From: Synechococcus sp.
Lineage (GTDB): Bacteria; Cyanobacteriota; Cyanobacteriia; PCC-6307; Cyanobiaceae
Direction: 5' to 3'
Assembly: GCA_047285535.1 (NCBI GenBank)
Contig: JBJBDC010000001.1
Coordinates: 2,272,136 to 2,336,135 of the forward strand
Length of the DNA stretch: 64,000 nt
The notes below the pieces were generated by a model. The model was not told where the DNA came from and did no database searches. It saw only the letters and a list, made by a program, of their open reading frames with translations. The first letter of the stretch is position 1; the number at the start of each line of letters is the position of its first letter. The translations under genes were made by a program, and so were the position numbers. Below are positions 1 to 18,467 of the stretch, in pieces.

Positions 1-336
1 GAAGTCACGGAAGAAAAACTCGATTGTTTGCGCGATGCCGATCTGATCGTCCGCGAGGAGGTGAGTGCTGCTGGGCTTTATCACGACATTTGGCAGGCGT
101 TTGCTGTTCTTCTCCCCGTGCGCTCGGTGGGTGTCATGGGTGACAAGCGCACCTACGCCTGGCCAATCGTGCTGCGCTGCGTTTCCAGTGAAGACGGTAT
201 GACCGCGGATTGGTCCAGGCTTCCCTATGACCTGATGGAAACCATTTCCAATCGGATCGTGAATGAGGTGAAAGGAGTCAATCGCGTGGTGATGGACATC
301 ACCAGTAAGCCTCCTGGAACAATTGAGTGGGAATAG
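1..336 (+). CDS. guaA: GMP synthase (glutamine-hydrolysing), 3' part; gene starts before the window
   Basis: Frame is open from base 1 ([14 protein letters not shown]). Contains [22 protein letters not shown] and the C-terminal [13 protein letters not shown] signature. Confidence 0.98.
322..336 (+). repeat. Left attachment-site core (ATTGAGTGGGAATAG, last codons of guaA)
   Basis: 13 of 15 nt identical to 6402-6416; GAGTGGGAATA is exact. Confidence 0.8.
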
Positions 337-438
337 TTCAGGGGGTCAAATCCCATCTGATACTAAAAAATTAGGTTCCACCTTGCACCTTGTCACCTTC
401 TCTATCGAGAAGTCGTTGACCAGAGGTTTTCTCTACAC

Positions 439-864
439 GTGGGAATCAAGAACAATCGAGGCAACAATCAACGGACCTATGCCCTCTTTGAGGAACTCAG
501 GCACTTGAGGGTGTTTCCTCAAGCAGAGGTCCCTTACATCTACAGGCGTCTTGATCGTCAGCAGGATTTGCTCGTGGAAGAGCGGGCGTATCAAGTTCGT
601 GTTCCTGTGCCAATGGAGAAAGGCGTCAGGAAATCCCTGAGGACTTCAGACAGGACCACTGCCATTGAGCGAGCAGAGGACTTAGTGCTTGAACTCAAGA
701 GTGCCCTGAGAGCGGGAGGTAATGCCTCCAGGGTTACTGCTGAGGATTTAGTCAGTCGCTTCCTCAAGACCAAGCGTGCTCGTGCTCTTTTTCAATCAAT
801 TTCAATCAATCGCCCACAAAGACCGAAGGACTCATCTGCGTCCACTCTCGATTTAGTCCTTTGA
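439..864 (+). pseudogene. Truncated N-terminal (arm/core-binding) part of a phage-type tyrosine integrase
   Basis: YQVRVPVPMEKGVRKSLRTSDRTTAIERAE resembles integrase N-terminal domains. It lies directly after the att core, has no catalytic domain, and turns to junk sequence after about 790. Confidence 0.65.
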
Positions 865-910
865 CAAGAAGTCTACGTAATTTTGTGACTGAATTGGTCT
901 TTCATGCACC

Positions 911-1077
911 TCTTCTCACTCTTTTCGTAGGACATAACAGACTGAGTTGTATCGTGAAGGGTGTTCATTAAGAGAAATTCAGCACATTTCTGGTAGCAAA
1001 TCCCCTCAGTCTTCCAGGAGTATCTGGAAATTGAAAAAGAAGAGATTGTTGAAAAGTTCCATCAAAAATGGCGCTAG
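911..1077 (+). pseudogene. Broken C-terminal catalytic fragment of a tyrosine recombinase
   Basis: Manual translation gives SSHSFRRT*QTELYREGCSLREIQHISGSKS, then after a frameshift FQEYLEIEKEEIVEKFHQKWR*. This has the HxxR motif and the catalytic Tyr codon (1021-1023), with an internal TAA at 935-937. Confidence 0.8.
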
Positions 1078-1256
1078 AACTAGCTTAATCTTTAATTGCT
1101 GACACTAAGGGAAGTCTGTTGAGGGCTTAAATTGTCTGAGCAGATGTGGCGATGGGTTTTATATCATTCAAATCTCACAGGCAATTGCTTTGTTTAAAGG
1201 GAATAAGCTTGGGTTTAATATAAAACGAAATCGTGTCTTGTTGATGTGATAGCAAA

Positions 1257-2357
1257 TCAGTTGCTTATTGCGCCAGATGCTTGTATGTATGAACCAATCT
1301 TTTTGCTGCCACTAGGATTTGTGTGGATGAAGTCGTATACGTCTTCTGGGCCAAGAATATTTTTAAGATACATGGGTAAGACAACTACTTTCTCTGTTGA
1401 GGGAAGTGTTTTTAGCGCTTCATCTTGAGTGGCATATATAGTAGCGAGTTTGTTGCATATGGTACCAGTAGAATCTCTGTTGGGATGAATATCTGTCCCG
1501 TAATATTTGGATTTGAATATGCATCCAGGCGCTTGCTGCTGAACAAGTATAATTTTTGCCCTCGGAAAATTATTCCTTGTCTGCGTAATTAATTCAAAGA
1601 AAATTTGCTTGTAATTGGAATAATTAATTGAGAAATCTCCTGAGAATTTCTTTCCGTCGTTAGGGCTTAAAAAGTTGGAACTTGTCCTTCCATGCATTGC
1701 AAGTGATACTTTCTTTCTCTCTTCATTCGTTTTGAACATTCTTGAAGTTGATTTATATATATTTAAGAGTCGTGGGTAGAAAAAGGAATATGTAGACAGG
1801 AATCCTTTGATGAAACTTGAAATATTCTGAGGTTTGTCATAAGCATTTAAGTCGTCCTCTAGAAGTCTTGGATCGTTGACCCCGAGATAAAAAATAATCA
1901 TGCTGACCATTTCCTGGTTCAGAGATGTTGAGTGCCAAGAATTAATTGAGGCAAGGTGTCCATATGTCGACTGACCATCCACTCCTCCGTTGATGAAATC
2001 ATAAGAGGGAAATTCTTTGTCCAAATAATCTTGCCAAGTCTCACCATCAGTGATGTAGCGCTGGTCAGTAGTAGAACCTCCTATCGTTAAAATTATTTTT
2101 TTTCTTGAATTCTTATCTTTGCCCCTGTATCCATCTTTGTCACGAGTATATGAAATTTTAACTGGATTACTGGATCCATATAGGTTGCGGGCATCGTAAT
2201 GAATGGTTTTATCTTTGATTAAACCTGGAATGGTTGCCGGTGGGTTTCTACGAGTCACTAGGTTTTTCCAGTCGCCAATAAACAATTCAATTAGTGCCAA
2301 TAATAACGCAAAGAAAAGAATGTTCAGCGAAAGGACTTTAGTGTGTGCTGATTTCAT
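1257..2357 (-). CDS. Membrane-anchored SGNH/GDSL-family protein (SxtL-like position)
   Basis: N-terminal hydrophobic helix. SGNH blocks GGSTT, NGGVDG, LGVND and DFIH. Confidence 0.85.
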   Translation of the reverse strand: MKSAHTKVLSLNILFFALLLALIELFIGDWKNLVTRRNPPATIPGLIKDKTIHYDARNLYGSSNPVKISYTRDKDGYRGKDKNSRKKIILTIGGSTTDQRYITDGETWQDYLDKEFPSYDFINGGVDGQSTYGHLASINSWHSTSLNQEMVSMIIFYLGVNDPRLLEDDLNAYDKPQNISSFIKGFLSTYSFFYPRLLNIYKSTSRMFKTNEERKKVSLAMHGRTSSNFLSPNDGKKFSGDFSINYSNYKQIFFELITQTRNNFPRAKIILVQQQAPGCIFKSKYYGTDIHPNRDSTGTICNKLATIYATQDEALKTLPSTEKVVVLPMYLKNILGPEDVYDFIHTNPSGSKKIGSYIQASGAISN

Positions 2358-2361
2358 TTGC

Positions 2362-2523
2362 TTAAAAAATCGAATAAATGAATGGCGCTACAACTGATCC
2401 CTGGGTAAACACTATGAGCGCTCCCATAAGGAGAATTGTGATGATCAAGGGTGCCAACCAGTACTTTTTGCGAACTTTCAGAAAGTCCCAGATCTCTTTG
2501 ATGAGATCAAGAAATGCTTCCAT
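2362..2523 (-). CDS. 53-aa membrane micropeptide, DUF5989/SxtK-like; not in the ORF track
   Basis: MEAFLDLIKEIWDFLKVRKKYWLAPLIITILLMGALIVFTQGSVVAPFIYSIF. ATG at 2523, stop at 2362-2364, 3-4 bp from both neighbouring genes. Confidence 0.9.
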   Translation of the reverse strand: MEAFLDLIKEIWDFLKVRKKYWLAPLIITILLMGALIVFTQGSVVAPFIYSIF

Positions 2524-2526
2524 GGT

Positions 2527-2919
2527 TCAAAAGGTGCGGGTGAGGTCAGTGCGATGGTCTTGGCAGTTTTCTCTGTAAGTTTTCTCACCTTTTCGCCGTC
2601 TTCTTAATGGGTCATATCCAGTAAGGCGCATGACATAAGCGATGGGTTGAAGAACAACAATGAACACAAGACCCAGGATGACGTGACTGTTAACCCATCC
2701 AAGAGCGTGTCCTAGTGACATCCAAACCTTATAAGGGTAGTGAAGTAGGCGGGGTTCTGTAAGGCCAAGGATCAATCCTGGAATCCCTACCCATACAGTC
2801 CATGCTCTGAATTCATGTCCGAAGAGTGAAGGGAGTAACCAACCGATAAGGATGGGGAATCCAAATCCGATAAGCAGTCCGAACTCGCGAAGTTGTTTTC
2901 GGGAAATTGTTTCTTTCAT
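2527..2919 (-). CDS. SxtJ-family membrane protein
   Basis: KQLREFGLLIG, WMSLGHALGWVNSHVILG and GYDPL motifs, several hydrophobic segments, and position directly after a carbamoyltransferase. ATG at 2919; alternative TTG at 2925. Confidence 0.85.
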   Translation of the reverse strand: MKETISRKQLREFGLLIGFGFPILIGWLLPSLFGHEFRAWTVWVGIPGLILGLTEPRLLHYPYKVWMSLGHALGWVNSHVILGLVFIVVLQPIAYVMRLTGYDPLRRRRKGEKTYRENCQDHRTDLTRTF

Positions 2920-2921
2920 GA

Positions 2922-4775
2922 TCAATCGAGTTCAAACTCCTCCATCCAGGTCTCATCTTTTTCAACTTTTGGTTGTTCGCTTTTGAAAAGGATCTGGTTT
3001 TGGAGAACCAGGACATCCATTTCTGTCCTCATGAAGCATCTATAAGCATCTCGAGGTGTACAGACAATAGGTTCACCTCTCACATTGAAGGAAGTATTGA
3101 CGATGGTAGGACAACCAGTCTTTCGCTTGAAGGCACTGATTAAATTGTAATAACGGGGATTCGTTGTCTTGCTAACTGTTTGAACCCTTGCTGAATAGTC
3201 CACATGAGTGATTGCAGGCAGTGAAGATCGCGGGATATTCAGTTTTTCGATACCAAAGAGTTTGTCTTCTTCCTCTGTCATTTGCTTGCAGAGTTCTTTT
3301 TTGACTGGAGCAACCAGAAGCATGTAGGGACTCTTGGCATTCATTTCAAACTGATTGCTGACATCTTCTTCCAGAACCGATGGAGCAAAGGGACGGAAAC
3401 TCTCTCGGTACTTGATTTTGAGGTTCATCACGCTCTGCATCTTCTGATTACGCGGGTCCCCAATGATGGAGCGACCACCTAGTGCTCTTGGTCCAAACTC
3501 CATAGGACCGTTGAACCAACCAATCACATGACCTTTCTCAAGTTCTTCTGCTAGACGCTCAAATAACTCTGGATCAATATGAGTGTGGAATGGCGCATTA
3601 ATCTGTTTAAGATAGTTACTGATGTCATCGTTGCTGAACTCAGGACCCAAGTAGGTTCCTTTCATTGAGTCGTTCATGTTGACGACTCTTTCCTGTTCTT
3701 GATGTTGATGCCATCCCACCAAGGCGGCACCCAGTGCTGAACCCGCATCACCGCTGGCAGGTTGAATCCAGATGTCGTCAAAGATTTTCTCTTGAAGCAA
3801 TTTCCCATTTGCAACGCAATTCAGAGCGACGCCACCAGCAAGACAGAGATTCTTGATTCCTGTCTCTTTCCTAAGTGATCTTGCCAGTTTGAGGATGATC
3901 TCTTCTGTGACGACCTGGATCGATGCCGCCAGGTCCATGTGGAACTGGGTGAGTTCTGTTTCTCCCTTGCGTGGTGGTCTACCAAAAAGTTTGTGGAACT
4001 TCCGTCCTGTCATGCGGAATCCACGATGGTATTTGAAGTAACTAATGTCGAGGTGGAAGGTCCCGTCCTCTTTGATATCAATCAGGTTGTCCTTGATCTG
4101 ATCGACATAGTTGGGTTCTCCGTAGGGAGCAAGACCCATGAGTTTATATTCACCAGAATTCACCTTGAACCCGCAGTAGTAGGTGAATGCTGAGTAAAGA
4201 AGACCCAGGGAGTGAGGAAAACTGATTTCCCAAAGGGGTTCGATGTTCTTACCCTTACCAATCCAGGCAGAGGTGGTTGCCCACTCACCAACGCCATCCA
4301 TACAGAGGACGACTGATTCTTCCAATGGACTTGGATAAAAGGCAGCAGCAGCGTGTGAAAGATGATGTTCTGAAAAAAGCAGGTTTGGAATATGGGTTGA
4401 ATTAGTGCCGAATGATTCTTGAACTTCTTTGAGGTTCTTCTTGAGTTCATTCTTTAAAAAGAGTTTTTCCTTTAACCAGACTTGCATCGCCGCTACAAAG
4501 GATCTGCTTCCTCTTGGTGCTGCACCCAGATAAGTCTCTAGAAGACGTTCAAAGGTCAATAGAGGTTTTTCGTAGTAAACGACCTCCTTGAGGTCTGAAA
4601 GATTGATGTCCTGTGATTTCAGGCAATATGAAACGGCATTCTTTGGAAATCGTGAATCGTGCTTTTTTCTGGAGAATCGTTCTTCTTGTGCTGCTGCAAT
4701 GATTTCGCCGTTTTTTAAAAGTGCGGCAGCGCTGTCGTGGTAATAACAAGATAGTCCAAGAATATATTCATCCAT
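2922..4775 (-). CDS. O-carbamoyltransferase (NodU/CmcH/TobZ/SxtI family)
   Basis: YHDSAAAL, EERFSRKKH, EHHLSHA, DGVGE, GEYKLMGLAPYG, GGVALNC, EFGPRALG, RESFRPFAP and NTSFNVRGEP motifs. Confidence 0.96.
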   Translation of the reverse strand: MDEYILGLSCYYHDSAAALLKNGEIIAAAQEERFSRKKHDSRFPKNAVSYCLKSQDINLSDLKEVVYYEKPLLTFERLLETYLGAAPRGSRSFVAAMQVWLKEKLFLKNELKKNLKEVQESFGTNSTHIPNLLFSEHHLSHAAAAFYPSPLEESVVLCMDGVGEWATTSAWIGKGKNIEPLWEISFPHSLGLLYSAFTYYCGFKVNSGEYKLMGLAPYGEPNYVDQIKDNLIDIKEDGTFHLDISYFKYHRGFRMTGRKFHKLFGRPPRKGETELTQFHMDLAASIQVVTEEIILKLARSLRKETGIKNLCLAGGVALNCVANGKLLQEKIFDDIWIQPASGDAGSALGAALVGWHQHQEQERVVNMNDSMKGTYLGPEFSNDDISNYLKQINAPFHTHIDPELFERLAEELEKGHVIGWFNGPMEFGPRALGGRSIIGDPRNQKMQSVMNLKIKYRESFRPFAPSVLEEDVSNQFEMNAKSPYMLLVAPVKKELCKQMTEEEDKLFGIEKLNIPRSSLPAITHVDYSARVQTVSKTTNPRYYNLISAFKRKTGCPTIVNTSFNVRGEPIVCTPRDAYRCFMRTEMDVLVLQNQILFKSEQPKVEKDETWMEEFELD

Positions 4776-5398
4776 TTAAAAAGGTATGAGTGAATATGCT
4801 TGAGGTGCTTGAGATTATACCTTGAAAACTGCTCCCAAACTCTTTGAGACCGCCTCAACAACCATTGTGATTCCTAGATTGGTCAAGGTTTATTCGTTGC
4901 ACGCATAGTCTCAAGTCTTGCTAGGAGTTCTTCAAATCATGGTCGAAATCCTCTTCTTGAGTTCATTGTTCTTGAATAATTTTCAATTTTACTCGTTGGA
5001 TGCGTTGCTCTAGTCGATGACATCTTTGCTATCAGGGCCTGGATACCAACCCTTGTTTTTCTTCTTCAGACCGAAGATGAGCATTCCCAGAGAGATGCCA
5101 TGACCACAACGCTTCAGGAACATCTCTCCTTCTTCTGCCAACTCCTCTTGAGTCAACGCGTTGGAGACAGCAGTGATTATGTCTAACTCCGACTAAGTAC
5201 GCTACAGACTTTTAGTTCAGCGTTGGACCTCTCGTTTAGTCAATTATGAGGGACATGACTTCTAGAAAGGGTATTAAAATTGCCGCAGTAGAACTGGTTG
5301 AGAGATTTGTGAGTGATTCTGGTTCCCTTTGAGTCGTGGACGTATGGATCTCGCATCCAGTCGCTCCTTTGAGTTGTCCTCGTCAAGACGCGAGTGCA

Positions 5399-6165
5399 TC
5401 AATCAGTCGCTCTCTTTACATCGTAGTGGAAGTAGTGCTCTTTCACATACTGGATGCTTGTATCGTAGTTGTTGCCAACTGTCGCGATCGGAACACCGCT
5501 CTCTTCAGATCCCAAGAGTTTTGACCATCCGTGAGACCAAAGATGGATGAAATTGGTACCACGTTCTCTTTTCATCCCAGAAGTGTTTAGTACGTTGCAG
5601 ATTCCACCCAATGACATTTCTTGGGATCTGAGGGGAATGAGAAGGTGGGAGATCTTCTGGTAGTTCTGACGATTTTTCTCCTTCTTCGCTTTTACTAGAC
5701 GATCAAGGTTCCATTGAGGGGTTCCTAACTTGACCCCTCTGTACTTTAGAGACAGGAGACCTGACTTTGATCTCTGACTAATGGAGTCTTTCTCCTGCTC
5801 AGACAGATAGGAATAGATATGGAGTTGAAATTTGGTTGAGTGTGGTAGTGAGGAGACCACCAGTTCCTAATCCTTGTCCTCCATTAGTTTTGAGACAAAA
5901 CTGACTTTTCTGGATATACGGTCGAGTTTGGAAACGATCAGGATTCCCTTTATTTGCTTGACCAGTTCAATCGACTTCAGGAGTTAAGGACGTGAGTCGT
6001 CAGAACCCGAATGAACTTCTGCGAATCTCCCAACCACCTCATAGGGAGTCTCCTGGTGGTAGGTCTCTAGGTAGTGGTTGATATCCTTCTCTTGTCCCTC
6101 TCACCCCAAACCTGGTCTACCCTGTCCCGAGTCGAGACGCGGAGGTGCTTCGAATGTTTCTTCAT
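5399..6165 (-). pseudogene. Small serine recombinase (resolvase/invertase family) pseudogene
   Basis: From ATG 6165 (AGGAGAGG upstream): LRVST, a frameshift, EVHSGSDDSRP*LLKSIE, LIVSKLDRISRKV, KD*ELVV, EQEKDSISQRSKSGL, RGVKLG. Stops at 5984-5986 and 5867-5869. The 3' end is approximate. Confidence 0.88.
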
Positions 6166-6401
6166 TGGTTCTCCTCTCCTGAAATGAAACGACCGTATTA
6201 AATAGGACAAAGATACGTTTTCTCTGCGTAGAGAACCTGTAGAGGTCGTTCAGGCTCTTCAATTGTCACAGTTTTACGAGATCTCTATGCTCCGACTCGT
6301 TTTTTGCCGTCTGTCCCCACTGCAACTGGAATTCCTCAGTTTCACTTGATCTGACCTTCTTCCGGTCTCCTTTTCCTCGCTAGACCCAGGAGATCCAATC
6401 C

Positions 6402-6416
6402 ATCGAGTGGGAATAA
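6402..6416 (+). repeat. Right attachment-site core (ATCGAGTGGGAATAA, displaced copy of the guaA IEWE-stop end)
   Basis: Encodes I-E-W-E-stop like the guaA end; differs only at two synonymous positions. Confidence 0.8.
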
Positions 6417-6891
6417 CAGCTGAGGCTATGAGCTGAAAAGGCGTGCTTTTGTTTGCCAGCTTTGATTAGTTTTTGTGCCTTCAGTGCACCTTTGCTTGCT
6501 AATCTGTCTGTTTAAGTGGTGGATTGAACGGGGCATGAGTATTGATCAGTTACGGCTTCTTCTTCACCTAATCAAACTCCTTGATCAGCAGCCTTGAAAA
6601 AGTGAATGGAAATGAGTGCGTTTTGATGCTTCTGGTTAAGTGTTAGGAAAGAAGGTGGTGTTTGGGATAAGGCGTTAGCGATGTAATGCAAGAACTTCTG
6701 CTGTCAGATAAGTTACTTGATCATTTGGTTGTGATCTGTGTGCATAAACTGGTTCAATCTATGACCACCAAGGTATAAAATATGTAGATTTGATGATCAG
6801 TTTCTTTCCGCCGAGTCAAGCAATCCCAAGCTCCATGGCTAAGAGATAAGCCCATAAGGTTTGGAAGGTTAAAGATTAAAATCTACTTTTT

Positions 6892-7707
6892 CTATGCCCC
6901 AAGTCCTATCAATTCTACAAGTCTCAAATTGCATCCACTTTTGCAAAATACATAATTTTCGCCGCATATATAGGAGCTGCCCCAGATATCCATCGCGGAC
7001 AAATGCGTCATAATCCTTTGGAATGAGCCTGCTCGGTCGTTGTCAGGCATTTCCATGATAAACACATTTACATAGTTCAACCATTGAGTATCTCCTTGGG
7101 TAAATATAAATTCTTCTGCCCCTTCTATGTCAATTTTGAAAACGTCAATCTGCATGCCAAGCAATCCAAATTTCTTCATCAAATCAACAACGGTGTAGGC
7201 TGATACAAATACATTATTGCTTTGCTTGAAAGAATCGCTGTTCTTTGATTTGTCAACATAAAACGATTCAAAGTTTGATCCTGATAAAAGTTTAATTGAT
7301 CCAGTTTCGTGCCAAAGCGCTCCATGAACCAAGTCAACAGAGTCGTCTCCTGAAAAGTTTTCACTTAAAAGCTTGTAGTTTCTCGCAGAGGCTTCCACTG
7401 CAACAATGCGAGCTTTTGGGTTGAAGTGACGAAATCTCAAGGTCTCGTCGCCGATATTTGCTCCTATGTCAAAGATTAATTTGACATCACCTATTATTTT
7501 ATACCCAGGCTTATACATATGGCTTATGACACCTTTGTCGGATCGAGGATAAAAATAAAAAAATCTTCCATGCACAAATATGTGTTTTTTGGTGTCAGTC
7601 TTGGATAGTAAATATGAGAAGATTTTTATAGTATTAGTAATTCCTGTTTGGTTGACGCACTCAAGAAAGCGGTCGCAAAGCCGTATCGCTCTGTTGATGC
7701 GATTCAT
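6892..7707 (-). CDS. FkbM-family SAM-dependent methyltransferase
   Basis: FDIGANIGD, VAVEAS and KIDIEGAE motifs; strongly AT-rich. Confidence 0.88.
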   Translation of the reverse strand: MNRINRAIRLCDRFLECVNQTGITNTIKIFSYLLSKTDTKKHIFVHGRFFYFYPRSDKGVISHMYKPGYKIIGDVKLIFDIGANIGDETLRFRHFNPKARIVAVEASARNYKLLSENFSGDDSVDLVHGALWHETGSIKLLSGSNFESFYVDKSKNSDSFKQSNNVFVSAYTVVDLMKKFGLLGMQIDVFKIDIEGAEEFIFTQGDTQWLNYVNVFIMEMPDNDRAGSFQRIMTHLSAMDIWGSSYICGENYVFCKSGCNLRLVELIGLGA

Positions 7708-8601
7708 TGGAGATAAATTTTATAATTAATTATTGCATGTGCTTAATTCAAAATCAAGTGTAAAAGCTGATCTTGGCAATTGATCTTCATGCCTTTAAGC
7801 CTTGTCTTGGCTTTAATTGGCAATCCCTGGTCGTATTTCTAGGTATTTTGTTTCAATTCCTTGTCAGAGTTGTTGTCGTTTTTGTGTAAAGGTGCCGAAT
7901 AGTGGAACTCCCCTTCGGAGTGTCTTTAGAGAAGGTCTATTTTTCTGCGGTGGAGAGTGGGACCTCTTATTCAGGAATCTTTATCATTCACGTCAAGTCC
8001 CCCGGTTCTTCTGTTGATGCTAGAGAACAGTGGGTCTTCCGCTGAACCATTAGCAAGGCGCCTCATGCTTTTGCTGAGTATGAGGTTTTCCATGAGTTTT
8101 GATCACTGTGCCACATTCATTTAAGGCACGATTGGGTGTTGGTTGGGCCGTTTGATTCTGTTTTCCAGTAGTTCAAGAATTGGTTGAAGCATGCAGGAAG
8201 AATCTTGCTTTGCAGGAGCTGCTTGATTCATGAGAAAGGCATGGAGCAATCGTCCAGTGTCCTCTTCTCCTTTGATGGTCAATGAGCAGTCTTTTGCCAT
8301 GAATCTTCTGGTTCAGTCGTTAGCAACCTTGGGGAGGCTCCAGTGGAGTCGGCAGACCCTGGGGGCGTAGACAACGACCTCTCTCAGTTATGGGTGTCGT
8401 TATTGGTCTTGATCAGTGACTTCGCTTGGCAACACGTGGTTTCACGTGAAAACTTATCTCAAGTTAAATCTTGAGAAGTGTCTCTATGACTGGGTTTCTG
8501 TTCAAACTCCGTCTGGGATCTAATCCAGTAGGAATGAGGTTGATTGAGGGGCTGGTGGATGAGCCTCAACGTCGATATCCTTAGCGCCCGGCTGCAAACC
8601 C

Positions 8602-9213
8602 TTGACCGCTGCTCAAGAGCAGGACATCCAGCTTCAGCGCCGCCTTCAGCAGGACAGCATTTTGCTTGCTGGGAAAACGATCTACATCAATCCATTCCTG
8701 TATTGGCGTCGTTTCGACAGCAATACAGATCGTTGGCTACGAGAACCAGGTCAGCTCTCTGAGGAGCAGATCGCGACCAATCGCGGTCGGTTTTATCCAG
8801 AGCTTGATTGGACATCTCTTAAGGACTCCGATCGGGAGATTAAGGATGGAGCTGTGGAGATGTTCCTCAAGAGCCTTGAGCTCATCGGGACGTTTCATCC
8901 TGAGCTCAGCTCCGGACACCTGCTTGAGGTGGAGCGGAAGATGGCGATCACCAAGAAGCGATCGTTCGAGCGCTGGGTTGAAAAGTCATACCGGCGTCGT
9001 GCCAAGCAGGAGACGCGGGAGCGACGTCGCTTTGTGCGTGACCGTTTTTGGCGGTCCTGGGGCGAGTGGCTTGCTTTAGAAGCCACTCACCACGCTTTGG
9101 CTCCAGCGGTGGCGTTATTGGTGCTTACGGGCGTTGGTGGTTGGTGGCTCGGGTCGTCAAATTCCAGTTGTCCAACACTTTTGCCTCCTACGGAGCAGAC
9201 TGGAGTTCGCTGA
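8602..9213 (+). CDS. Conserved picocyanobacterial hypothetical protein with C-terminal TM segment
   Basis: 203-aa ORF with backbone-like composition; first gene of the run leading to mrdA. Confidence 0.8.
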   Translation: MTAAQEQDIQLQRRLQQDSILLAGKTIYINPFLYWRRFDSNTDRWLREPGQLSEEQIATNRGRFYPELDWTSLKDSDREIKDGAVEMFLKSLELIGTFHPELSSGHLLEVERKMAITKKRSFERWVEKSYRRRAKQETRERRRFVRDRFWRSWGEWLALEATHHALAPAVALLVLTGVGGWWLGSSNSSCPTLLPPTEQTGVR

Positions 9214-9227
9214 ATTCGGTTCTGCTC

Positions 9228-9623
9228 ATGGCTGAGAGTCAACCGTTTGACACCTTGCGATTGACGTTGATGCAGGACGTATTACCCGTTGGGCTCGCTT
9301 TGGTTGAAAGAGTCCGTGCAGGTGGCCCAGGCAAGGTTATGGAAACGTTCACTTCGGGTGCGTCCGATCCTTTGCGCGAGTTGCGACATGAGGGTGAACC
9401 CGCGGCGAAAGATGTGCGTGAACGACTCGATCACTTGAGCCCAGGACTCGGTAATCCTGTGATGCCGGTGCAAGTTGCTGTGGAGGAGCCTTCATCGGAG
9501 GTACGAGATGTTCTTGACGAAGGCCGGTCTCCTGAGCAGGACGAACAGCAGTTGCATGAGGTCCTGGAGAGGATTACGCAGCGCCTTGAGGCCTTAGAGG
9601 CTCAGCTTGAGGAAGAGAGCTAA
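9228..9623 (+). CDS. Conserved hypothetical protein with coiled-coil C-terminus
   Basis: ATG 9228 (MAESQPFDTLRLTLMQDVLPVG), PGLGNPV motif; ends 5 bp before mrdA. Confidence 0.75.
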   Translation: MAESQPFDTLRLTLMQDVLPVGLALVERVRAGGPGKVMETFTSGASDPLRELRHEGEPAAKDVRERLDHLSPGLGNPVMPVQVAVEEPSSEVRDVLDEGRSPEQDEQQLHEVLERITQRLEALEAQLEEES

Positions 9624-9628
9624 AGGGT

Positions 9629-11434
9629 ATGACCCGCTCGGCTACGCCTCAGAGGGACAGTCAGCGTCAAAGCGGATCGCGTCAGCAGCCCTTGGTGTTG
9701 TTTGGATTGGTGCTGTTGTTTTGTGGCGCGATGGTGGCGCGGTTGGTATGGCTCCAGTTGTTGGAGGGGCCTCGCTATCGACAGTTGGCGGATGAAAATC
9801 GGATTCGTCTGGTACCCAGATCACCAACGCGAGGTCGTCTGCTGGATCGCAAAGGAAGGGTTTTAGCCTCCAGCAAGCTCACCTATTCGCTGTATGTGGA
9901 GCCGCGATTGGTGGATGACGCAGCGTGGCCTGAGTTGCGCGACCGCTTATCCAGTCTTTTAAATCTTGATTCCGTCACCTTGGATCAGCGCCGCCAGTCG
10001 GCTCCTGATCGCAACGGCTATCGCATCAATTTGGCAACAGAACTCACCCCCGAGCAGGTGCTGCGCTTCCGTGAGCAGTCCCTCGGCCTCAAAGGAGCCC
10101 AAGTGGATGTGGATATTCTTCGCTTGTATCCCCATGGGACACTCGCAGCCCATGCTCTGGGCTACACCCAGCCAATTACGGAGGAGGAATACAAAGCCCT
10201 TGCCGATCGCGGTTACGAGATTCGCGACCGCATCGGCCGGATCGGTGTAGAGGCTGCCTATGAGTCGCATTTGCGTGGTCAGTGGGGTGGGCAAATGCTC
10301 GAAGTGAATGCGATGGGTGAGGTGCAGAGGCATCTTGGTGATCGCCCCTCTGTGGCCGGTAAGGATCTAACGCTCACTCTTGATCTCGATCTGCAGAAGA
10401 CAGCTGAGAAAGCTTTGGCTGACAAACCTGGGGGCGCAATCGTGGCCATGGACCCTCGTAATGGAGCGATCTTGGCCTTAGCGAGTAAGCCCAATTTTGA
10501 CCCTAATTTTTTCTCCAAGCTGGTGACGACCCAGAAGGAGTACGACGCTCTGTTCTCCAATCCGCGCAAGCCTTTGTTGAGCCGAGCGATGAATGCTTAT
10601 GACCCTGGCAGCACGTGGAAGCCTGTGACGGCGATGGCTGGGATGGCGACTGGAAAATTTCCTCCTGAGGTGAAGTTGAACACGACTGCTTGCATCACGT
10701 ATGGAGGGCACTGCTTCCCGGATCACAATGGTGCCGGATTTGGACGGATTGGTTATGCCGATGCCTTGCGCTTCTCCAGCAATACATTTTTCTATCAAGT
10801 CGGAGTTGGTGCAGGTTCTTTAGCTCTCAAAAAGGCTGCTACCCAGCTTGGTTTTGGACGTAAGACGGGCATTGAGATCGGTTGGGAAGAGAACGTTGGT
10901 CTTGTGGGAGATGAAGACTGGGCTGCGGCAGGGCGGGGCTGGGCAAAACCTGGTTCCACACCCTGGATCCCAGAGGACATGGCCTCTGCTTCGATTGGGC
11001 AGTCGGTGGTGCAGATCACCCCTCTTCAATTGGCGCGGGCTTATTCCGTGTTTGCGAATGGTGGGTGGCTGGTGACTCCTCATCTGGCCGATCAAGGTTT
11101 GGATTGGACGGCTCCATCCCGGCGTACCAAGGTGCCGATCAAGCCATCAACCTTGGCCAAAATCCGTGAAGGATTGCGCAAGGTGGTGGAGGACGGCACC
11201 GGTTACGGCCTCAATGGGGAGGGGATTCCTCCTGCGGCTGGTAAGACCGGCACAGCGGAAGACAGCACGGGCGGTCCGGATCATGCCTGGTTTGCCAGTT
11301 ATGCCCCGTACCCGAATGGCGAAATTGTGGTGGTTGCTTTTGCTCAGAACACGCCTGGGGGAGGTTCCGTGCATGCACTTCCGATGGCCAAGAAAGTGAT
11401 TGAGGTGTGGAACCGCAATCGCAAGCAGAATTGA
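9629..11434 (+). CDS. mrdA: Penicillin-binding protein 2
   Basis: N-terminal TM, RGRLLDRKG, PGSTWK (SxxK), SSN (SxN) and KTGTAE. Confidence 0.95.
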   Translation: MTRSATPQRDSQRQSGSRQQPLVLFGLVLLFCGAMVARLVWLQLLEGPRYRQLADENRIRLVPRSPTRGRLLDRKGRVLASSKLTYSLYVEPRLVDDAAWPELRDRLSSLLNLDSVTLDQRRQSAPDRNGYRINLATELTPEQVLRFREQSLGLKGAQVDVDILRLYPHGTLAAHALGYTQPITEEEYKALADRGYEIRDRIGRIGVEAAYESHLRGQWGGQMLEVNAMGEVQRHLGDRPSVAGKDLTLTLDLDLQKTAEKALADKPGGAIVAMDPRNGAILALASKPNFDPNFFSKLVTTQKEYDALFSNPRKPLLSRAMNAYDPGSTWKPVTAMAGMATGKFPPEVKLNTTACITYGGHCFPDHNGAGFGRIGYADALRFSSNTFFYQVGVGAGSLALKKAATQLGFGRKTGIEIGWEENVGLVGDEDWAAAGRGWAKPGSTPWIPEDMASASIGQSVVQITPLQLARAYSVFANGGWLVTPHLADQGLDWTAPSRRTKVPIKPSTLAKIREGLRKVVEDGTGYGLNGEGIPPAAGKTGTAEDSTGGPDHAWFASYAPYPNGEIVVVAFAQNTPGGGSVHALPMAKKVIEVWNRNRKQN

Positions 11435-11435
11435 T

Positions 11436-12611
11436 TTATGCCGCCGAGCTGATGTCTGAGGAGAGCACTTGGCGGTAATAGCCGCGTAGCTGTTCCGTGG
11501 CCCCAGCCCATCCCCAACGTTCGGCTTCCGAGCGGGCGGCATTGCGGAGGGCTTGCCGCTCGAGGTCATTGCCAAGCAGTTTTCCGGTGGCTTCGATCAA
11601 GCTGGCAGCACCTGCATCGTCTCCATCCGGTTCGTAGAGACACCCGTTCACACCATCGGTGATGATGTCTGGAATCCCGCCCCGATTGGCGCCCACGACT
11701 GGGCAACCTGCTGCCATCGCTTCAAGCAAAACAAGACCAAGGGTTTCGGTGCTGGAAGGGAAGAGGAACGCATCACCGCTGGCGTAGGCACCGGCTAGTT
11801 CTTCGCCGGCGAGATATCCCACGAAGGTGGTGGCGGTTCCTTCGAAATGTTTTTCAAGCTGCTGCCGGTGGGGACCGTCACCTACGAGCGCAAGCCGAGT
11901 GTCGGGCAAAGCCTCGAGGACTGGACGGATTCGCTCGATTTGCTTTTCTGCAGAGAGCCGACCTACATAAAGCAGAAGAGCATCGCGGTCGTCGTATTCA
12001 CCATGCAGGCGTTTACGGAGTTCTGAGCTACGCAACTCCGGTCGGAATAGTTCTGTGTCTACGCCTCGCTGCCAGAGGGCGGTGTGCTGGATGCCCTTAT
12101 CGCTGAGTTCCTTCACCATTGCGGTGGAGGTGCACAGATTCAGCACAGCTTGGTTATGAGCCGCTTTCAGGAGCTCCCAGAGCAAGGGTTCGAGCATCCC
12201 CATGCCGTAGTGCTCGAGATACTTCGGAAGATGGGTGTGGTAGCTGGCCATCAGGGGGATGGCCTTGGTCTTGGCGAGCCAGATGCCTCCTAATCCAAGG
12301 ACTGCTGGATTGACAACGTGGATCAGGTCTGGATGAAATTGATCAATAGCATCGGAGACAGCCGGACGGGGTAAGGCCAGCTTGAGCTCTGGGTACAGCG
12401 GCAAGGGCATGGCGGGAACGCCAACGACTTTGGCCCCCATGTAGTGATTGGGTGCGCCTTCCGGGCAGAACACCACCACCTCATCTCCCCCATCGACCAG
12501 ATGCTTCACCGTTTTCGTAAGCCGAGTGACGATGCCGTCGACTTTGGGCAGAAACGTTTCGGTAAAGAAGGCGATTTTCAAAGGTTCGTCCCGATTAGGA
12601 GGCGTTGCCAA
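11436..12611 (-). CDS. sqdX: GT4 glycosyltransferase, sulfoquinovosyldiacylglycerol synthase
   Basis: KIAFFTETFLPKVDGIV and ETLGLVLLEAMAAG; directly downstream of sqdB. Start uncertain. Confidence 0.88.
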   Translation of the reverse strand: MATPPNRDEPLKIAFFTETFLPKVDGIVTRLTKTVKHLVDGGDEVVVFCPEGAPNHYMGAKVVGVPAMPLPLYPELKLALPRPAVSDAIDQFHPDLIHVVNPAVLGLGGIWLAKTKAIPLMASYHTHLPKYLEHYGMGMLEPLLWELLKAAHNQAVLNLCTSTAMVKELSDKGIQHTALWQRGVDTELFRPELRSSELRKRLHGEYDDRDALLLYVGRLSAEKQIERIRPVLEALPDTRLALVGDGPHRQQLEKHFEGTATTFVGYLAGEELAGAYASGDAFLFPSSTETLGLVLLEAMAAGCPVVGANRGGIPDIITDGVNGCLYEPDGDDAGAASLIEATGKLLGNDLERQALRNAARSEAERWGWAGATEQLRGYYRQVLSSDISSAA

Positions 12612-13791
12612 TGGCTTGAGCTTGCGTTTTGGTCCAGGCGGATGTGCAGAGGATACGATCGCGATCGCAACGATCAGCGAAGCGGGTGGCGATTTCCACC
12701 ACTTCTTTCAAGAGACCGTCATCGAGGGTTGTGGGGTTGAGCCCTAGCTCAATGAAACAACGGTTGTCGACAATCAGGTCGTTTTCAACGGCTTCATTGC
12801 GGGGGTTGGGCAGATGATTCACCTTGGTTCCTGTGAGGGCTGCCACCTTCTTGGCCAGTTCGCCCACCTGATGGCTTTCGGTCATCTGATTGAAGATCTT
12901 GACTCGTTCGCCTTGCTCTGGGGGGTTGTCCAGGGCCAGCTGGACGCAGCGCACTGAATCGCGGATGTGAATGAAGGCACGGGTCTGGCCGCCAGTGCCG
13001 TGTACGGTCAGCGGGTAGCCAATCGCTGCCTGCATGAGGAAGCGGTTGAGCACGGTGCCGTAGTCACCGTCGTAATCAAAACGGTTGGTCAGCCGTGGGT
13101 CGCGATCCGTTGCTTCTGTATTCGTGCCCCAGACGATGCCCTGGTGGAGGTCGGTGATTCTGACCTTGTCGTTTTTGTTGTAGTAAAGGAAGAGCAGCTG
13201 ATCCAGCGTCTTGGTCATGTGATAGACGCTGCCAGGGCTGGCTGGGTGAAGGATCTCCTCCTCGAAGCGACTGCCGTCAGGTTGGGGTACTTCCACTTTG
13301 AGATAGCCCTCGGGAATGGTGGCGCCACGGTGGGAGCCATACCCGTACACACCCATGGTGCCGAGGTGCACCACATGGATGTCTCGCCCGGATTCCACGA
13401 TCGCTGCAAGCAGGTTGTGGGTGCCGTTCACATTGTTGTCAACGGTGTAGCGCTTGGTGGAGCTGCTCTTCATCGAGTAGGGAGCTGCGCGCTGCTCGGC
13501 GAAGTGGACGATCGAATCGGGTTGTTCCTCGATGATCAGATCCAGAAGACGTTGGTATTCGTGCGCAATGTCCATGTGCACGAAGCGCATGGGCCTACCG
13601 CCAGTGCTTTTCCATGCATTGAGGCGCTCGCCGATGCTCACGATCGGCGTAAGTGATTCCACCTCAAGGTCGATGTCGATCTTGCGTCGGCTGAGGTTGT
13701 CCACGATCACAACGTCGTGACCCTGGTCCGCCAAATTCACCGCACAAGGCCAACCGCAGAAGCCGTCACCACCTAAAACGAGAACTTTCAC
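12595..13791 (-). CDS. sqdB: UDP-sulfoquinovose synthase
   Basis: GGDGFCGW, HFAEQRAAPYSM, HLGTMGVYG and YHMTK; GTG start at 13791. Confidence 0.95.
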   Translation of the reverse strand: MKVLVLGGDGFCGWPCAVNLADQGHDVVIVDNLSRRKIDIDLEVESLTPIVSIGERLNAWKSTGGRPMRFVHMDIAHEYQRLLDLIIEEQPDSIVHFAEQRAAPYSMKSSSTKRYTVDNNVNGTHNLLAAIVESGRDIHVVHLGTMGVYGYGSHRGATIPEGYLKVEVPQPDGSRFEEEILHPASPGSVYHMTKTLDQLLFLYYNKNDKVRITDLHQGIVWGTNTEATDRDPRLTNRFDYDGDYGTVLNRFLMQAAIGYPLTVHGTGGQTRAFIHIRDSVRCVQLALDNPPEQGERVKIFNQMTESHQVGELAKKVAALTGTKVNHLPNPRNEAVENDLIVDNRCFIELGLNPTTLDDGLLKEVVEIATRFADRCDRDRILCTSAWTKTQAQAIGNAS

Positions 13792-13848
13792 CCAAACTCC
13801 TGCTGAAGCGAGCAAGCCGCTGATTTCTGGCAAGCTACTACAGGGTTT

Positions 13849-14016
13849 TCAGCTCACGGCCACAGACAGAGCCATCAGAGCGACAACCAGCACTGCTCCG
13901 GCGATGACCAGGAGCCGAGAGCTGGTGCTGCGAGAGGCTTCTTCGCTGATCACTTCCATGCGAGGTTCCTTTGCGAAGGCGTTCAGACGGCCGCCATCTT
14001 CTTTAGTGACCTGCAT
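13849..14016 (-). CDS. psb34: Ssl1498/Psb34-family PSII assembly small protein
   Basis: EDGGRLNAFAKEPRM motif followed by one C-terminal TM helix. Confidence 0.75.
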   Translation of the reverse strand: MQVTKEDGGRLNAFAKEPRMEVISEEASRSTSSRLLVIAGAVLVVALMALSVAVS

Positions 14017-14125
14017 GGATCGCACTACAACTGAACGGGACCTTATGGATTTAATCGTTGTTGCGCTCACACTCCTTTACGTCTCGAGACATGCTGTTAC
14101 AAGTTGGTGTCCGTATTGAGTGCCT

Positions 14126-14938
14126 CTAGGCGTTGATGCGTCCGCTGATGGGGGAGCTGGGAGAAGCATCTGTGCGGGGCGGCAGCCGACCTGCCAGCAA
14201 GGCCTGACGTCCTGCCTGCACGGCAGCAGCCATCGCTTCTGCCATCAGAGGAGGTTGTCCTGCAAGGGCGATGGCGCTGTTGATGAGAACGGCATCAGCG
14301 CCCATTTCCAACGCTTGGGCGGCATCGCTTGGTACGCCGATGCCTGCATCCACCACCACCGGCACGCAGGCATTTTCAATGATCAGGCCAATATTGGCGG
14401 CATTGCGTAAGCCTTGCCCTGAGCCTATCGGTGATCCCAGCGGCATCACAGTGGCGCAGCCAACGTCTTCTAAGCGTTTGGCGAGTAACGGATCGGCATT
14501 GATGTATGGCAGCACGGTGAAGCCTTCTTGAACCAGTGTTTCTGCTGCTTCCAGCGTTCCAAACGGATCGGGCAGCAAGTGATGGCTGTCAGGGATCACT
14601 TCTAATTTGACAAAAGTGTTGTTTTCCTGACCAGCCAGTTTCGCTAGTTCCCGGCCAAGCCTGGCGACGCGCACAGCTTCTTCCGCGTTGGTGCAGCCCG
14701 CTGTGTTGGGGAGCATCCAGATTCGGGTCCAGTCAATCGCTTGCATCAGGCCTTCATGCCCCTCAGCGACAGCCTGAACCCGTCTCACGGCGACGGTGAC
14801 CATATCGCAGCCTGATTTCTCCAGGCTGTTTTTCATTGTTTCCAGGCTTGGGTATTTGCCTGTTCCCGTGATCAGCCTGCTTTGAAAACTGCGCCCTCCA
14901 ATCAGGAGTGCATCGTCGTGAAAGTGGGTCGAATCCAT
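14126..14938 (-). CDS. thiG: Thiazole synthase
   Basis: [34 protein letters not shown] and VVVDAGIG. Confidence 0.97.
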
Positions 14939-15031
14939 AGTGGTCAGTTGCGGTTTGGTTGGAGAACCGGATCTTTATGTGGTCAAGCAGGCCGCAACCG
15001 CTCTACCGTGCGCCCATCATCTATTCCATCC

Positions 15032-15571
15032 ATGCCCGTTCCTCCTGTCATGGACGTACCGGTCGATATTCAAGTGCCGGTCAATATTCAGGCACCGTTT
15101 GAGGCTCCACCGCCATTTGACAGTTCACAACCGGTGCTTCCTCTGGTTCTTGACGAATCGGTTGAAAGGTTTGATCCGGTTGCACGAGCGTCTTATCTTG
15201 CCGAAACATTGCCCAAGCAATGGTGCGGAAATTACACCGCATTTGATTCGAATTCCACCGTGGATGTGGAGTTGACGCTTGCCAGCGTGAAACCCATGGG
15301 TCAGATGGTTGATTTGCGTGGTGATATGCGTATTGGTTCGATTTCAACGGCTGTGCAGGGGAACCTCAATGCTAAGTCTGATCAGCTTGATCTTCTTCCC
15401 TTGTCTCCAGTGCTTACGAATGACTTGGAGATTGGCGGAAGGTTTCTAGGAATGCAGGGTTTCTCTCTCGCTGGTTGGGAGGCCCCAAGATTAACCAATA
15501 CTGGTGGCAGGCTTGACCTTTCCTCCAGCTGTACCAGCTTAGAATCCGCGCCCATCAGAGCTCTTTGGTGA
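15032..15571 (+). CDS. Conserved hypothetical protein
   Basis: Long ORF with VQGNLNAKSDQLDLLPL and TGGRLDL segments; start uncertain. Confidence 0.65.
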   Translation: MPVPPVMDVPVDIQVPVNIQAPFEAPPPFDSSQPVLPLVLDESVERFDPVARASYLAETLPKQWCGNYTAFDSNSTVDVELTLASVKPMGQMVDLRGDMRIGSISTAVQGNLNAKSDQLDLLPLSPVLTNDLEIGGRFLGMQGFSLAGWEAPRLTNTGGRLDLSSSCTSLESAPIRALW

Positions 15572-16114
15572 AGCCTTGAGAGAGCTATTACCTTTTGAGC
15601 CGGCGCGTTCCAAACGTTTTAATCGCTTGCTTGCCGTTTTGTTGTTTGGATCAAGAGCAAGCACTTGGCGATAAAGGGAACAAGCTTCTTCCTTTTCTAA
15701 AAGACGTTCTTGAGCAAAGGCAAGGTTATTAATAGCGACTGGATAATCCTCTTTTGCTCGTAGTGCAGCTTTGTAATGGCGTACTGCAGTACTGAAGTCT
15801 TTCTCGGCAGCTAAGGCATAGCCCAAGGCATTCTGAATGAGAGCGCGTGCTTCATCTGGCTCTTCGTTGAGGCTTTTAAGGGCTTGGCGCAACGTAATAA
15901 TTGCCTGAGGGTAAAGACGCTTGCGCAACTGCACTGATGCGAGTTCGTATAAAGCACTTGCGTCTTTTGAGGATGCAATTTTGTTTTGCTCCATTGTGCG
16001 CAAGCTTTGTTCATCGCGACGAACGCGAAAAAACTGACGACCCGCGACAACCGCAACGATCGCCAAAAGGCCAATCAGGCCCAGTAAATAGGTCTGCGGC
16101 AAAAGAGCGTTCAT
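15539..16114 (-). CDS. TPR protein with N-terminal TM (Ycf37-like)
   Basis: TPR helices LYELASVQLRKRLY, NALGYALA and AINNLAFA; lies downstream of rplT. Confidence 0.8.
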   Translation of the reverse strand: MNALLPQTYLLGLIGLLAIVAVVAGRQFFRVRRDEQSLRTMEQNKIASSKDASALYELASVQLRKRLYPQAIITLRQALKSLNEEPDEARALIQNALGYALAAEKDFSTAVRHYKAALRAKEDYPVAINNLAFAQERLLEKEEACSLYRQVLALDPNNKTASKRLKRLERAGSKGNSSLKASPKSSDGRGF

Positions 16115-16150
16115 TTCAGTGCCAAGAAACGTCCGATTAAGGACTGGTCA

Positions 16151-16498
16151 TTACCCCTGAGTGGCGTTGACGACGGAGGCAAAACTTGCGGGATCCACCA
16201 CTGCCATCTGAGCCAACATTTTTCGGTTGATGCGCACATCGGCTTTTTTAAGACCACCGATCAAACGGCTGTAACTCACGCCATTGATTCGTGCTGCAGC
16301 ATTGATCCTTGCAATCCATAGGCGACGGAAATCACGCTTGCGACGACGTCGGTCGCGGTAGGCATTGCAAAGCGCTTTCATCACGCGTTGGTTAGCCGTG
16401 CGGAAGAGTGTTCCGTTGCTGCCCTGGAATCCACGGGCTAAACGAAGAATTTTATTGCGACGTTTACGGGCAACATTGCCTCTCTTGACGCGAGCCAT
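16151..16498 (-). CDS. rplT: 50S ribosomal protein L20
   Basis: [14 protein letters not shown] and [17 protein letters not shown]. Confidence 0.99.
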
Positions 16499-16573
16499 GA
16501 ATCAGATGTGGAGAAATTAAACGGGAAAAAAGGTCCTGCATTGTGGACGACCTAGCAGGAATGAACGCAGAGC

Positions 16574-18464: not shown

Positions 18465-18467
18465 AAT

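Follow-up and report, generated by a model that had tools for sequence, protein, structure and literature searches.

The window analysed here is a stretch of 64,000 nucleotides (positions 2,272,136 to 2,336,135 of contig JBJBDC010000001.1) from the single-contig, 3.03 Mb genome of a picocyanobacterium, Synechococcus sp. Near its start, at 1257-4775, lies a cassette of four intact minus-strand open reading frames (ORFs) encoding, in this order, a class III O-carbamoyltransferase (CT), the membrane protein SxtJ, a DUF5989/SxtK microprotein (the peptide) and an N-anchored SGNH protein (Table 1). CT and SxtJ are separated by 2 bp if SxtJ starts at an ATG (2527-2919) and overlap by 4 bp at the CT stop if it starts at a TTG (2527-2925); the next two gaps measure 3 and 4 bp. 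A first-pass annotation, made from the letters alone, had described four intact, packed minus-strand genes with gaps of at most 4 bp, and the ORFs, coordinates and Pfam families all agree with it. It had also proposed that the cassette shuttles a carbamoyl group to a cell-surface polymer without an MBOAT protein. Comparisons across genomes and structure models indicate that CT, SxtJ and the peptide very probably form a real and widespread three-part membrane carbamoyltransferase module. The best reading of the cassette, to which we give a probability of roughly 0.55, is that the CT loads carbamoyl on the Tyr of the peptide and that the SGNH protein unloads it outside.

Table 1. Features of the cassette and of the islet in which it lies (positions in the window).
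Feature	Position	Strand	Basis and remarks
Class III O-carbamoyltransferase (CT; Kae1-like and YrdC-like domains), SxtI clade	2922..4775	-	617 aa; PF02543 E 2e-109, PF16861 E 3e-74
CT residues 72-109, two amphipathic helices touching the peptide in the co-fold	4449..4562	-	predicted interface
SxtJ membrane adaptor	2527..2925	-	130-132 aa; PF19588 E 1e-54; helical hairpin and one 44-residue helix, basic C-terminal tail
DUF5989/SxtK microprotein	2362..2523	-	53 aa; PF19451 DUF5989 E 3e-25; amphipathic helix, basic RKK patch, one transmembrane helix, GS turn, tail
FIYSIF hexapeptide (FXYXXF) with the proposed carbamoyl carrier Tyr50 (codon 2374-2376)	2365..2382	-	sequence, tail conservation
N-anchored SGNH protein	1257..2357	-	366 aa; PF00657 E 1.7e-5; N-terminal hydrophobic helix
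SGNH catalytic residues Ser95, Asn161, Asp342, His345	Ser95 2073-2075; Asp342 1332-1334; His345 1323-1325	-	DxxH
FkbM-family methyltransferase	6892..7707	-	PF05050, TIGR01444; same islet and strand; GC as low as in the SGNH gene
Low-GC islet downstream of guaA	337..8100	.	composition; boundaries approximate
Integrase-like remnant	439-864		inside islet; weak DUF6538 match
Resolvase-like remnant	5399-5860		inside islet; weak Resolvase match

The CT is a class III enzyme by domain makeup, with a Kae1-like and a YrdC-like domain and a general-base His, and an activity dependent on ATP and carbamoyl phosphate is predicted. Residues H13, H137, H138, H141, D160, D343, K455 and S562 are invariant in 57 of 57 sequences; His13 aligns with His27 of GdmN, the general base, and the others presumably belong to conserved metal and nucleotide motifs. 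The first description of the protein as NodU/TobZ-type holds for TobZ (PF02543, PF16861 and the fold match below) but not for NodU proper, because the NF041651 model scores 140 bits against a cut-off of 1000. Together with the PF19588 and PF19451 genes this SxtI-clade CT makes up the SxtI/J/K module.

The module was followed in 80 peptide loci from GTDB, the best 80 of 574 confirmed, found with two search patterns of which one contained the tail. Of these loci, 72 have a CT and 73 have SxtJ on the DNA that was fetched, in four gene orders; among the 45 loci with at least 9 kb on both sides the numbers are 43 and 42. In a sample of 301 genomes from the cyanobacterial phylum the peptide was found above the Pfam cut-off in 51, and a CT scoring above 900 bits is present in 50 of these and in none of the 250 peptide-negative genomes, using a profile that includes cyanobacterial module CTs. 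The remaining positive genome has a 589-bit CT beside the peptide, and 11 of the negatives carry other CTs, of at most 533 bits. The co-occurrence holds where both genes lie far apart, and in each of five cases where no CT was near the peptide, the genome has one at another site. Neither SxtJ nor the peptide was found within about 4.5 kb of 15 other CT loci. Natural fusions join CT to SxtJ (747 aa) and SxtJ to the peptide (ten related sequences of 195-199 aa in the P0347 clade, and a second pair, P0366/P0370), which places both SxtJ termini and the peptide N-terminus on the CT's side. Conserved residues of SxtJ are R12, F14, G15, L60, W67 and P93. The three proteins are thus a near-obligate module. 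Two divergent CTs lie beside a peptide: one of about 570 bits keeps the hydrophobic docking segment described below and is accompanied by a short SxtJ and an SGNH protein (L150:5593-9343), and one of about 540 bits has no detectable SxtJ (L044:8193-10144). Most 'longer' DUF5989 records were rejected as fusions since they appear, by eye, to be gene calls with a frameshift or stop read-through.

The same three proteins are predicted to bind each other. The CT model (predicted local distance difference test score, pLDDT, 85.9) matches the folds of GdmN, TobZ, NovN and VtdB with TM-scores of 0.76-0.81, and residues 71-100 are poorly resolved, with low pLDDT, when the CT is folded alone. For the co-fold of all three proteins the score was 0.70, against 0.00 for the best of three controls, and replacing the CT drops it to 0.00. 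A mark of 0.70 was reached by 116 of 157 solved pairs and by 2 of 215 mismatched pairs, a calibration that is only rough here because three chains and alignments made for this analysis were used. The runs share at least 92% of contacts with a partner pLDDT of at least 75, and the co-fold supports binding. In it, the contacts of the peptide are with residues 72-109 of the CT and with residues 13-21, 67-103 and 129-131 of SxtJ. CT residues 72-85 align with helix 1 of GdmN, and the available part of the GdmN study describes this helix as a wall of the acceptor pocket and His27 as the general base (PMC9633730). Segment 72-109 has a mean hydropathy of -0.02 in 57 module CTs compared with -0.72 in 15 other CTs. 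Since the peptide docks on this hydrophobic pocket wall, the prediction is that the pocket opens toward the membrane at the peptide. Residues 71-109 were also considered as an insertion, which was rejected because other CTs have a segment of similar length that is more polar. Peptide residues 40-48 make confident contacts, and their antiparallel register with the long SxtJ helix, read from contact lists and not from coordinates, suggests that the tail turns back to the conserved F14 and W67 of SxtJ. A fold search with the model of an SxtJ-peptide fusion returned generic helical hairpins only (best Z 7.5, 50 residues, root-mean-square deviation 2.1), and the ESM Atlas returned only the proteins' own families.

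In the peptide an amphipathic helix and a basic RVRKK patch precede the single hydrophobic helix, and a GS turn leads from there to the tail VVAPFIYSIF and the stop. In 57 of 57 aligned homologues the distance from W22 to the C-terminus is exactly 32 residues, and in these homologues there are 3-5 basic residues before the hydrophobic helix and 0-1 after it. Because the basic residues are almost confined to the N-terminal side, an N-in/C-out topology with the tail on the outer face is predicted. The FXYXXF motif was reportedly defined by Schultz et al. in 2023. In acyl shuttles, as described in one report, an MBOAT acylates the Tyr of a C-terminal FXYXXF and an SGNH protein takes the group off again (PMC12148441). 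In the host genome 2 of 39,643 stop-to-stop frames end in F-x-Y-x-x-F, with 0.79 expected by chance, and these two are the present peptide and the only MBOAT of the genome (AAFIYFNF). The motif alone is within chance for one genome, but its conservation across phyla is far beyond chance.

All 80 GTDB loci end in F-x-Y-x-x-F-stop, and F48, Y50 and F53 are kept in 81 of 81 sequences, both in sets partly chosen by the tail pattern. For this reason the conservation was re-tested with a profile from peptide residues 5-41 only, and one frameshifted copy (L278) was dropped from the count. Tyr is at position -4 in all 86 intact distinct homologues found in this way: 38/38 from the cyanobacterial phylum, 14/14 from alphaproteobacteria and 34/34 from metagenomes, the last fetched through the SGNH neighbour and not through the peptide. 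The terminal Tyr is thus conserved. The first Phe varies in 7 of the 86 and the last in 6, with the Tyr retained where the first Phe is lost, and Tyr50 is never replaced by Phe although positions 14 and 21 swap F/Y/W. Among 150 representatives of the 50%-identity library the motif is internal in 30 and absent in 14, by eye mostly due to read-through or frameshifted gene calls. In one family (f33, L115-L118) a TPR gene is directly followed by the order peptide-SxtJ-CT, and the last Phe of the tail is replaced by Ile (SPFIYTII/VI).

The fourth protein has a membrane anchor and an intact Ser-His-Asp set, with Ser95, Asn161 and Asp342-x-x-His345 invariant in 38 of 38 aligned relatives. SGNH neighbours, detected with a locally built profile and mostly with one N-terminal anchor, are present in 46 of the 80 peptide loci and in 28 of the 45 well-covered ones. 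Among 71 aligned proteins 70 keep the Ser, 64 the Asn and 67 the His. A reverse search from the SGNH clade of the window gave a peptide gene in 36 of 80 metagenome loci, which are mostly short. The cyanobacterial-phylum genomes were scanned with a profile made exclusively from neighbours outside the cyanobacteria, and 46 of the 51 peptide-positive genomes have an SGNH match at E 1e-10. In one cyanobacterial family (f8) 12 of 12 positive and 0 of 6 negative genomes match at E 3e-46 or better, a cut-off chosen afterwards, and none of these SGNH genes adjoins the peptide. Among 301 alphaproteobacterial genomes, 54 of them peptide-positive, a match at E 1e-20 was tallied by hand in 36/54 positives and 9/247 others, with a profile that includes alphaproteobacterial members and with kin that are not independent. 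Ten genomes have a module neighbourhood free of SGNH genes; in nine of these a match was found at another site, which in seven cases reached E 1e-38 or better. Peptide-SGNH pairs without an adjacent CT-SxtJ also exist. The claimed link between DUF5989 peptides and SGNH proteins with Ser and His is therefore borne out: the partners are strongly linked to the module, and also to the peptide alone, without being universal.

At a number of loci a peptide gene, in several cases a divergent one, lies directly beside an SGNH gene and apart from CT-SxtJ (L191, L192, L196, L202, L209, L213, L220:150-311, L271, L272, L275, L276 and L277). At L275 there are two copies in tandem, and L220 and L273 have two peptide genes each. 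Several SGNH paralogues per genome are common, with six in tandem at L049:11060-20155, and tandem arrays of 3-6 are also seen for example at L042/L045/L053/L056 from 10131 and at L162. The arrays in Oscillatoriales consist of two alternating types, GDSF..GHWN and GGSV..CCHYN, and one genome has 22 matches. Family f33 was considered as a clean set of SGNH-free counter-examples and rejected: its genomes miss the E 1e-10 threshold, yet contain several divergent N-anchored SGNH proteins.

In line with the system without an MBOAT proposed at the outset, scans of 132, 107 and 42 neighbour proteins from the 80 loci, comprising the nearest genes and multi-transmembrane ORFs rather than every ORF, detected no PF03062 protein. 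The single MBOAT of the host genome is about 270 kb from the cassette. This 526-aa frame (G000:C1:2543242-2545858) ends in AAFIYFNF-stop and is followed, in a nucleotide-sugar cluster, by a 344-aa gene whose C-terminus is SGNH-like by eye, so that the locus looks like an ordinary MBOAT-type system in the same cell.

The nature of the acceptor was approached through neighbouring genes. A glycan gene is found within about 10 kb at 19 of the 45 well-covered loci and in 26 of 151 windows of the host genome, and at least three glycan genes at 13/45 and 6/151, respectively. This contrast is inflated because the glycan profiles were seeded from these loci; without the 12 seed loci a glycan gene is found in 7 of 33, near the background of 26/151. 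Recurrent neighbours are O-antigen ligase, flippase, Wzm/Wzt, GT-C and GT2/GT4 genes, and glycan neighbours are also found in close relatives of the host genome. Many module copies lie among housekeeping genes, and some in small-molecule clusters. The link to lipopolysaccharide or exopolysaccharide is thus weaker than suggested: glycan neighbours are present at part of the loci, and the islet itself contains no glycosyltransferase or other glycan gene by gene and Pfam survey. A surface polymer is a plausible acceptor. Of the four observations that the first-pass annotation had named as speaking against its proposal none was made; those within reach of sequence comparison were a terminal Tyr that is not conserved and DUF5989 genes that are not linked to SGNH or glycan genes.

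One small-molecule cluster is on a Planktothrix plasmid, where SxtJ, peptide and SGNH genes are found with a sterol-desaturase-like gene, a methyltransferase, a DMT exporter, an amidase, an SDR and an aminotransferase (L268:6485-20162). No CT was found within 10 kb, and the cluster is uncharacterised. In two alphaproteobacteria an AMP-binding enzyme adjoins the module (L267:3941-5700, together with a 79-aa gene, and L091:5929-7455), and a cytochrome bo3-type oxidase operon is downstream of it in two unrelated alphaproteobacteria (L091, L094).

In the proposed mechanism the YrdC-like domain would make carbamoyl-AMP from carbamoyl phosphate and ATP and the Kae1-like domain would carbamoylate a hydroxyl, His13 serving as base; this chemistry is established for the class III family. 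The CT helices 72-109 are predicted to dock on the amphipathic and transmembrane helices of the peptide and on SxtJ, with the pocket facing the membrane. The tail might then fold back along the long SxtJ helix so that Tyr50 becomes O-carbamoylated, and afterwards move to the outer face. There, by analogy with DltD and PatB, the N-anchored SGNH protein would take the group on Ser95 and hand it to an acceptor beyond the inner membrane. Serine hydrolases are readily carbamoylated by aryl carbamates, and release by water is slow, which makes the last two steps plausible. The donor unit is constant while the SGNH partners vary, often with several per genome, and thus the SGNH protein probably sets the acceptor specificity. 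The acceptor is likely to be a surface glycan in most cases, though some clusters may use an exported small molecule instead.

Several observations weigh against this mechanism. The co-fold, which the first-pass annotation had proposed as a check, was run with three chains and docks the peptide on the pocket-wall helix of the CT, but it does not put the Tyr in an active site because residues 49-53, including Tyr50, are absent from the confident contacts. A tail of about 12 residues must reach both a cytoplasmic site and an enzyme on the outer face with the help of two small membrane proteins, which is unexplained. Six intact homologues among those found with the tail-free profile end in I, L or N instead of F, and two peptide homologues on viral contigs have no such tail (L113:7740-8174 and L114:7923-8186). 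The SGNH partner is missing within about 10 kb at 17 of the 45 well-covered loci and at E 1e-20 in 18 of the 54 peptide-positive alphaproteobacteria. At E 1e-10 a match is also found in 81 of 250 peptide-negative cyanobacterial-phylum genomes, and the clean separation below 1e-40 (24 positive and 0 negative genomes) depends on a cut-off chosen after the data had been seen. The SGNH proteins mostly do not have the non-canonical oxyanion turn in block II that is typical of transferases such as PatB and OatA: the window protein and 56 of the 71 neighbours aligned keep the canonical Gly that is replaced in PatB. Sequence matches in PDB are topped by esterases and designed proteins, with AlgX and AlgJ lower. 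The N-terminal side of the SGNH anchor is more positive in 43 of 69 proteins, with the reverse in 14 and 12 ties, so that N-in/C-out is moderately supported. Finally, sulfation dependent on 3'-phosphoadenosine 5'-phosphosulfate (PAPS) has been proposed to act on the carbamoyl group of saxitoxin, according to the available part of one report (PMC2684587), and this fits cytoplasmic carbamoylation better in that pathway.

Part of this evidence suits an arrangement without a relay, in which SxtJ and the peptide are anchoring and pocket-forming subunits of the CT, the tail is structural, a cytoplasm-facing or lipid-linked acceptor is carbamoylated directly, and the SGNH protein is a separate decarbamoylase or editing hydrolase. 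The co-fold supports binding of CT, SxtJ and peptide with the Tyr unplaced, many loci have no SGNH gene nearby, and partner chains can take this role: the pocket of GdmN is completed by a loop from the partner chain (PMC9633730, available part). Cytoplasmic carbamoylation of lipopolysaccharide is known for the putative WapO (PMC8005017, available part), and the accessible literature on saxitoxin assigns carbamoylation to SxtI, SxtJ and SxtK jointly and decarbamoylation to SxtL, without experiment. Direct transfer leaves unexplained why the free C-terminal FXYXXF has an invariant Tyr that is never Phe, why peptide-SGNH pairs occur apart from CT-SxtJ and why unlinked SGNH genes co-occur with the peptide genome-wide. 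In addition, L. wollei, without sxtL, still makes decarbamoyl analogues according to the part of its description that was available. We therefore regard direct transfer as rather unlikely.

The relay could also be real with the wrong acceptor, so that it serves mainly exported small molecules, proteins or lipids and the polysaccharide claim fails at this locus. Glycan genes are lacking in the islet and at 26 of the 45 well-covered loci, which weighs against the surface glycan in the preferred reading as well. The module is found in a saxitoxin-type cluster with a MATE exporter and in the plasmid cluster with a DMT exporter and a desaturase, and the recurrent GT-C/PMT-like neighbours act at the outer face on proteins or lipids. 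Such a restriction nevertheless seems improbable in view of the loci with at least three glycan genes, even if that contrast is inflated, and of the ligase, flippase, Wzm/Wzt and glycosyltransferase neighbours that recur, also in close relatives of the host. Least credible of all is that the peptide is a DltX-like acyl shuttle served by a distant MBOAT, with a secondary link to the CT. The genome does have one MBOAT, and AT3 acyltransferases are near three loci, but that MBOAT already carries a tail as part of its own chain and is followed by a partner gene of its own, while the peptide co-occurs near-perfectly with the CT clade and co-folds on it with a score that falls to 0.00 when the CT is replaced.

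The preferred reading, a relay from CT to peptide Tyr to SGNH protein, has its closest counterpart in the Dlt system (DltB/DltX/DltD). The available part of the literature describes the same separate single-transmembrane microprotein with a C-terminal FXYXXF and a basic N-terminal side, and an N-anchored Ser/His SGNH protein (PMC12148441). The module differs in having no nearby MBOAT or carrier protein and a soluble Kae1/YrdC CT as donor, in that the transferred group would be carbamoyl and not D-alanyl, and in being found in diderms of many phyla, often with several SGNH paralogues. In the PatA/PatB systems for MBOAT-SGNH O-acetylation the hexapeptide is also found (FIYANF in PatA), and fusion of the shuttle with the membrane component has its parallel in the natural SxtJ-peptide fusions. 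However, PatA has a transmembrane tunnel and a catalytic His, whereas SxtJ has 130 residues and no clear match to any solved fold, and PatB has a non-canonical block II while the SGNH proteins of the module mostly keep the Gly. Thus the module shares with the Dlt/Pat-type shuttles a membrane protein that ends in FXYXXF with an invariant Tyr, and an anchored SGNH protein, but it is not a member since the MBOAT is absent, although it would work alike. The CT shares its two-domain fold and catalytic motifs with TobZ, GdmN, NovN, VtdB, NodU and the putative WapO. Characterised class III CTs are soluble monomers or dimers that act on cytoplasmic acceptors, in contrast to the module clade with its hydrophobic pocket-wall segment and two obligate membrane partners.

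The likeness to sxtI-J-K-L of saxitoxin clusters, pointed out in the first-pass annotation, is real in part. Pfam families and gene order are the same, and in a fetched sxt-type cluster the CT is 64% identical and the peptide ends in APFIYTLF, but the SGNH protein of that cluster has no significant pairwise match to the one in the window, which is not a close relative of SxtL. No other sxt gene lies beside the module: amidinotransferase, Rieske dioxygenase, MATE and sulfotransferase genes were absent from positions 1-20000 of the window and from 15 kb upstream, the whole genome not being searched for sxtA. The module is also far more widespread than saxitoxin. In the accessible part of the saxitoxin literature SxtJ and SxtK are given as unknown, hypothetical, regulatory or acting with SxtI, and SxtL is a proposed decarbamoylase. 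In L. wollei, according to the part of the report available, sxtI is truncated and sxtL is absent while decarbamoyl analogues are made, and SxtL is consequently not needed for them. These losses fit a joint loss of the four-gene unit, and also the authors' own reading.

The peptide family comprises 3,010 clusters at 50% identity and includes Pelagibacteraceae, Prochlorococcus and Sinorhizobium, and the peptide is present in 51/301 cyanobacterial-phylum and 54/301 alphaproteobacterial genomes sampled. In Sinorhizobium meliloti the SGNH, SxtJ, peptide and CT genes form one cluster. Two routes for transfer of groups from the cytoplasm to the envelope have been worked out, MBOAT-SGNH and AT3-SGNH, according to the available part of one report (PMC12148441). 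We tentatively propose, at somewhat less than even odds, that the module is a third envelope-modification route without an MBOAT or AT3 channel, combining a soluble CT docked to SxtJ, an aryl carbamate on a microprotein Tyr, a locally thinned membrane and interchangeable SGNH transferases. If so, this route would use another donor chemistry and no channel-forming enzyme, would occur in roughly a sixth of the genomes sampled from the two groups, and would extend the use of the FXYXXF tail beyond the MBOAT family. DUF5989 and SxtJ would gain functions, and SxtL-like proteins would be carbamoyl-transferring enzymes instead of presumed decarbamoylases. SxtJ and SxtK, without a role since 2008, would thereby receive one that can be tested. 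Abundant marine bacteria would be expected to have surface molecules with O-carbamoyl groups that have so far gone unrecognised, which might be relevant to recognition by phages and grazers. No paper with 'DUF5989' and none tying SxtK or DUF5989 to an acyl shuttle was found in a literature survey judged mostly from titles and abstract openings, with supplements outside its scope.

The viral DUF5989-like peptides (L113/L114) keep the N-terminal helix and the transmembrane helix, with a tail that is longer and different and lacks FXYXXF. No CT relative was found on the viral contigs, which gave four peptide matches, one of them intact, and this tail-less form is possibly a decoy or repurposed.

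In the islet of the window the FkbM methyltransferase is the sole candidate co-gene and possibly a co-acquired tailoring gene. Scans of the islet for promoters, terminators and repeats gave no result exceeding chance. Close relatives have the cassette at different sites or lack it, and in one of them CT-SxtJ-peptide is 83% identical at the DNA level, yet the SGNH gene differs. The stretch at 5240-5550, adjoining the resolvase remnant, recurs beside the cassette in one relative (G325) and elsewhere in two further relatives (75-78% identity), which suggests that it is part of a shared mobile element. Decayed copies are also found: a broken CT with SxtJ and no peptide detected in G319 (L176:10031-12056), and a frameshifted peptide in G518 (L278:6329-6995).

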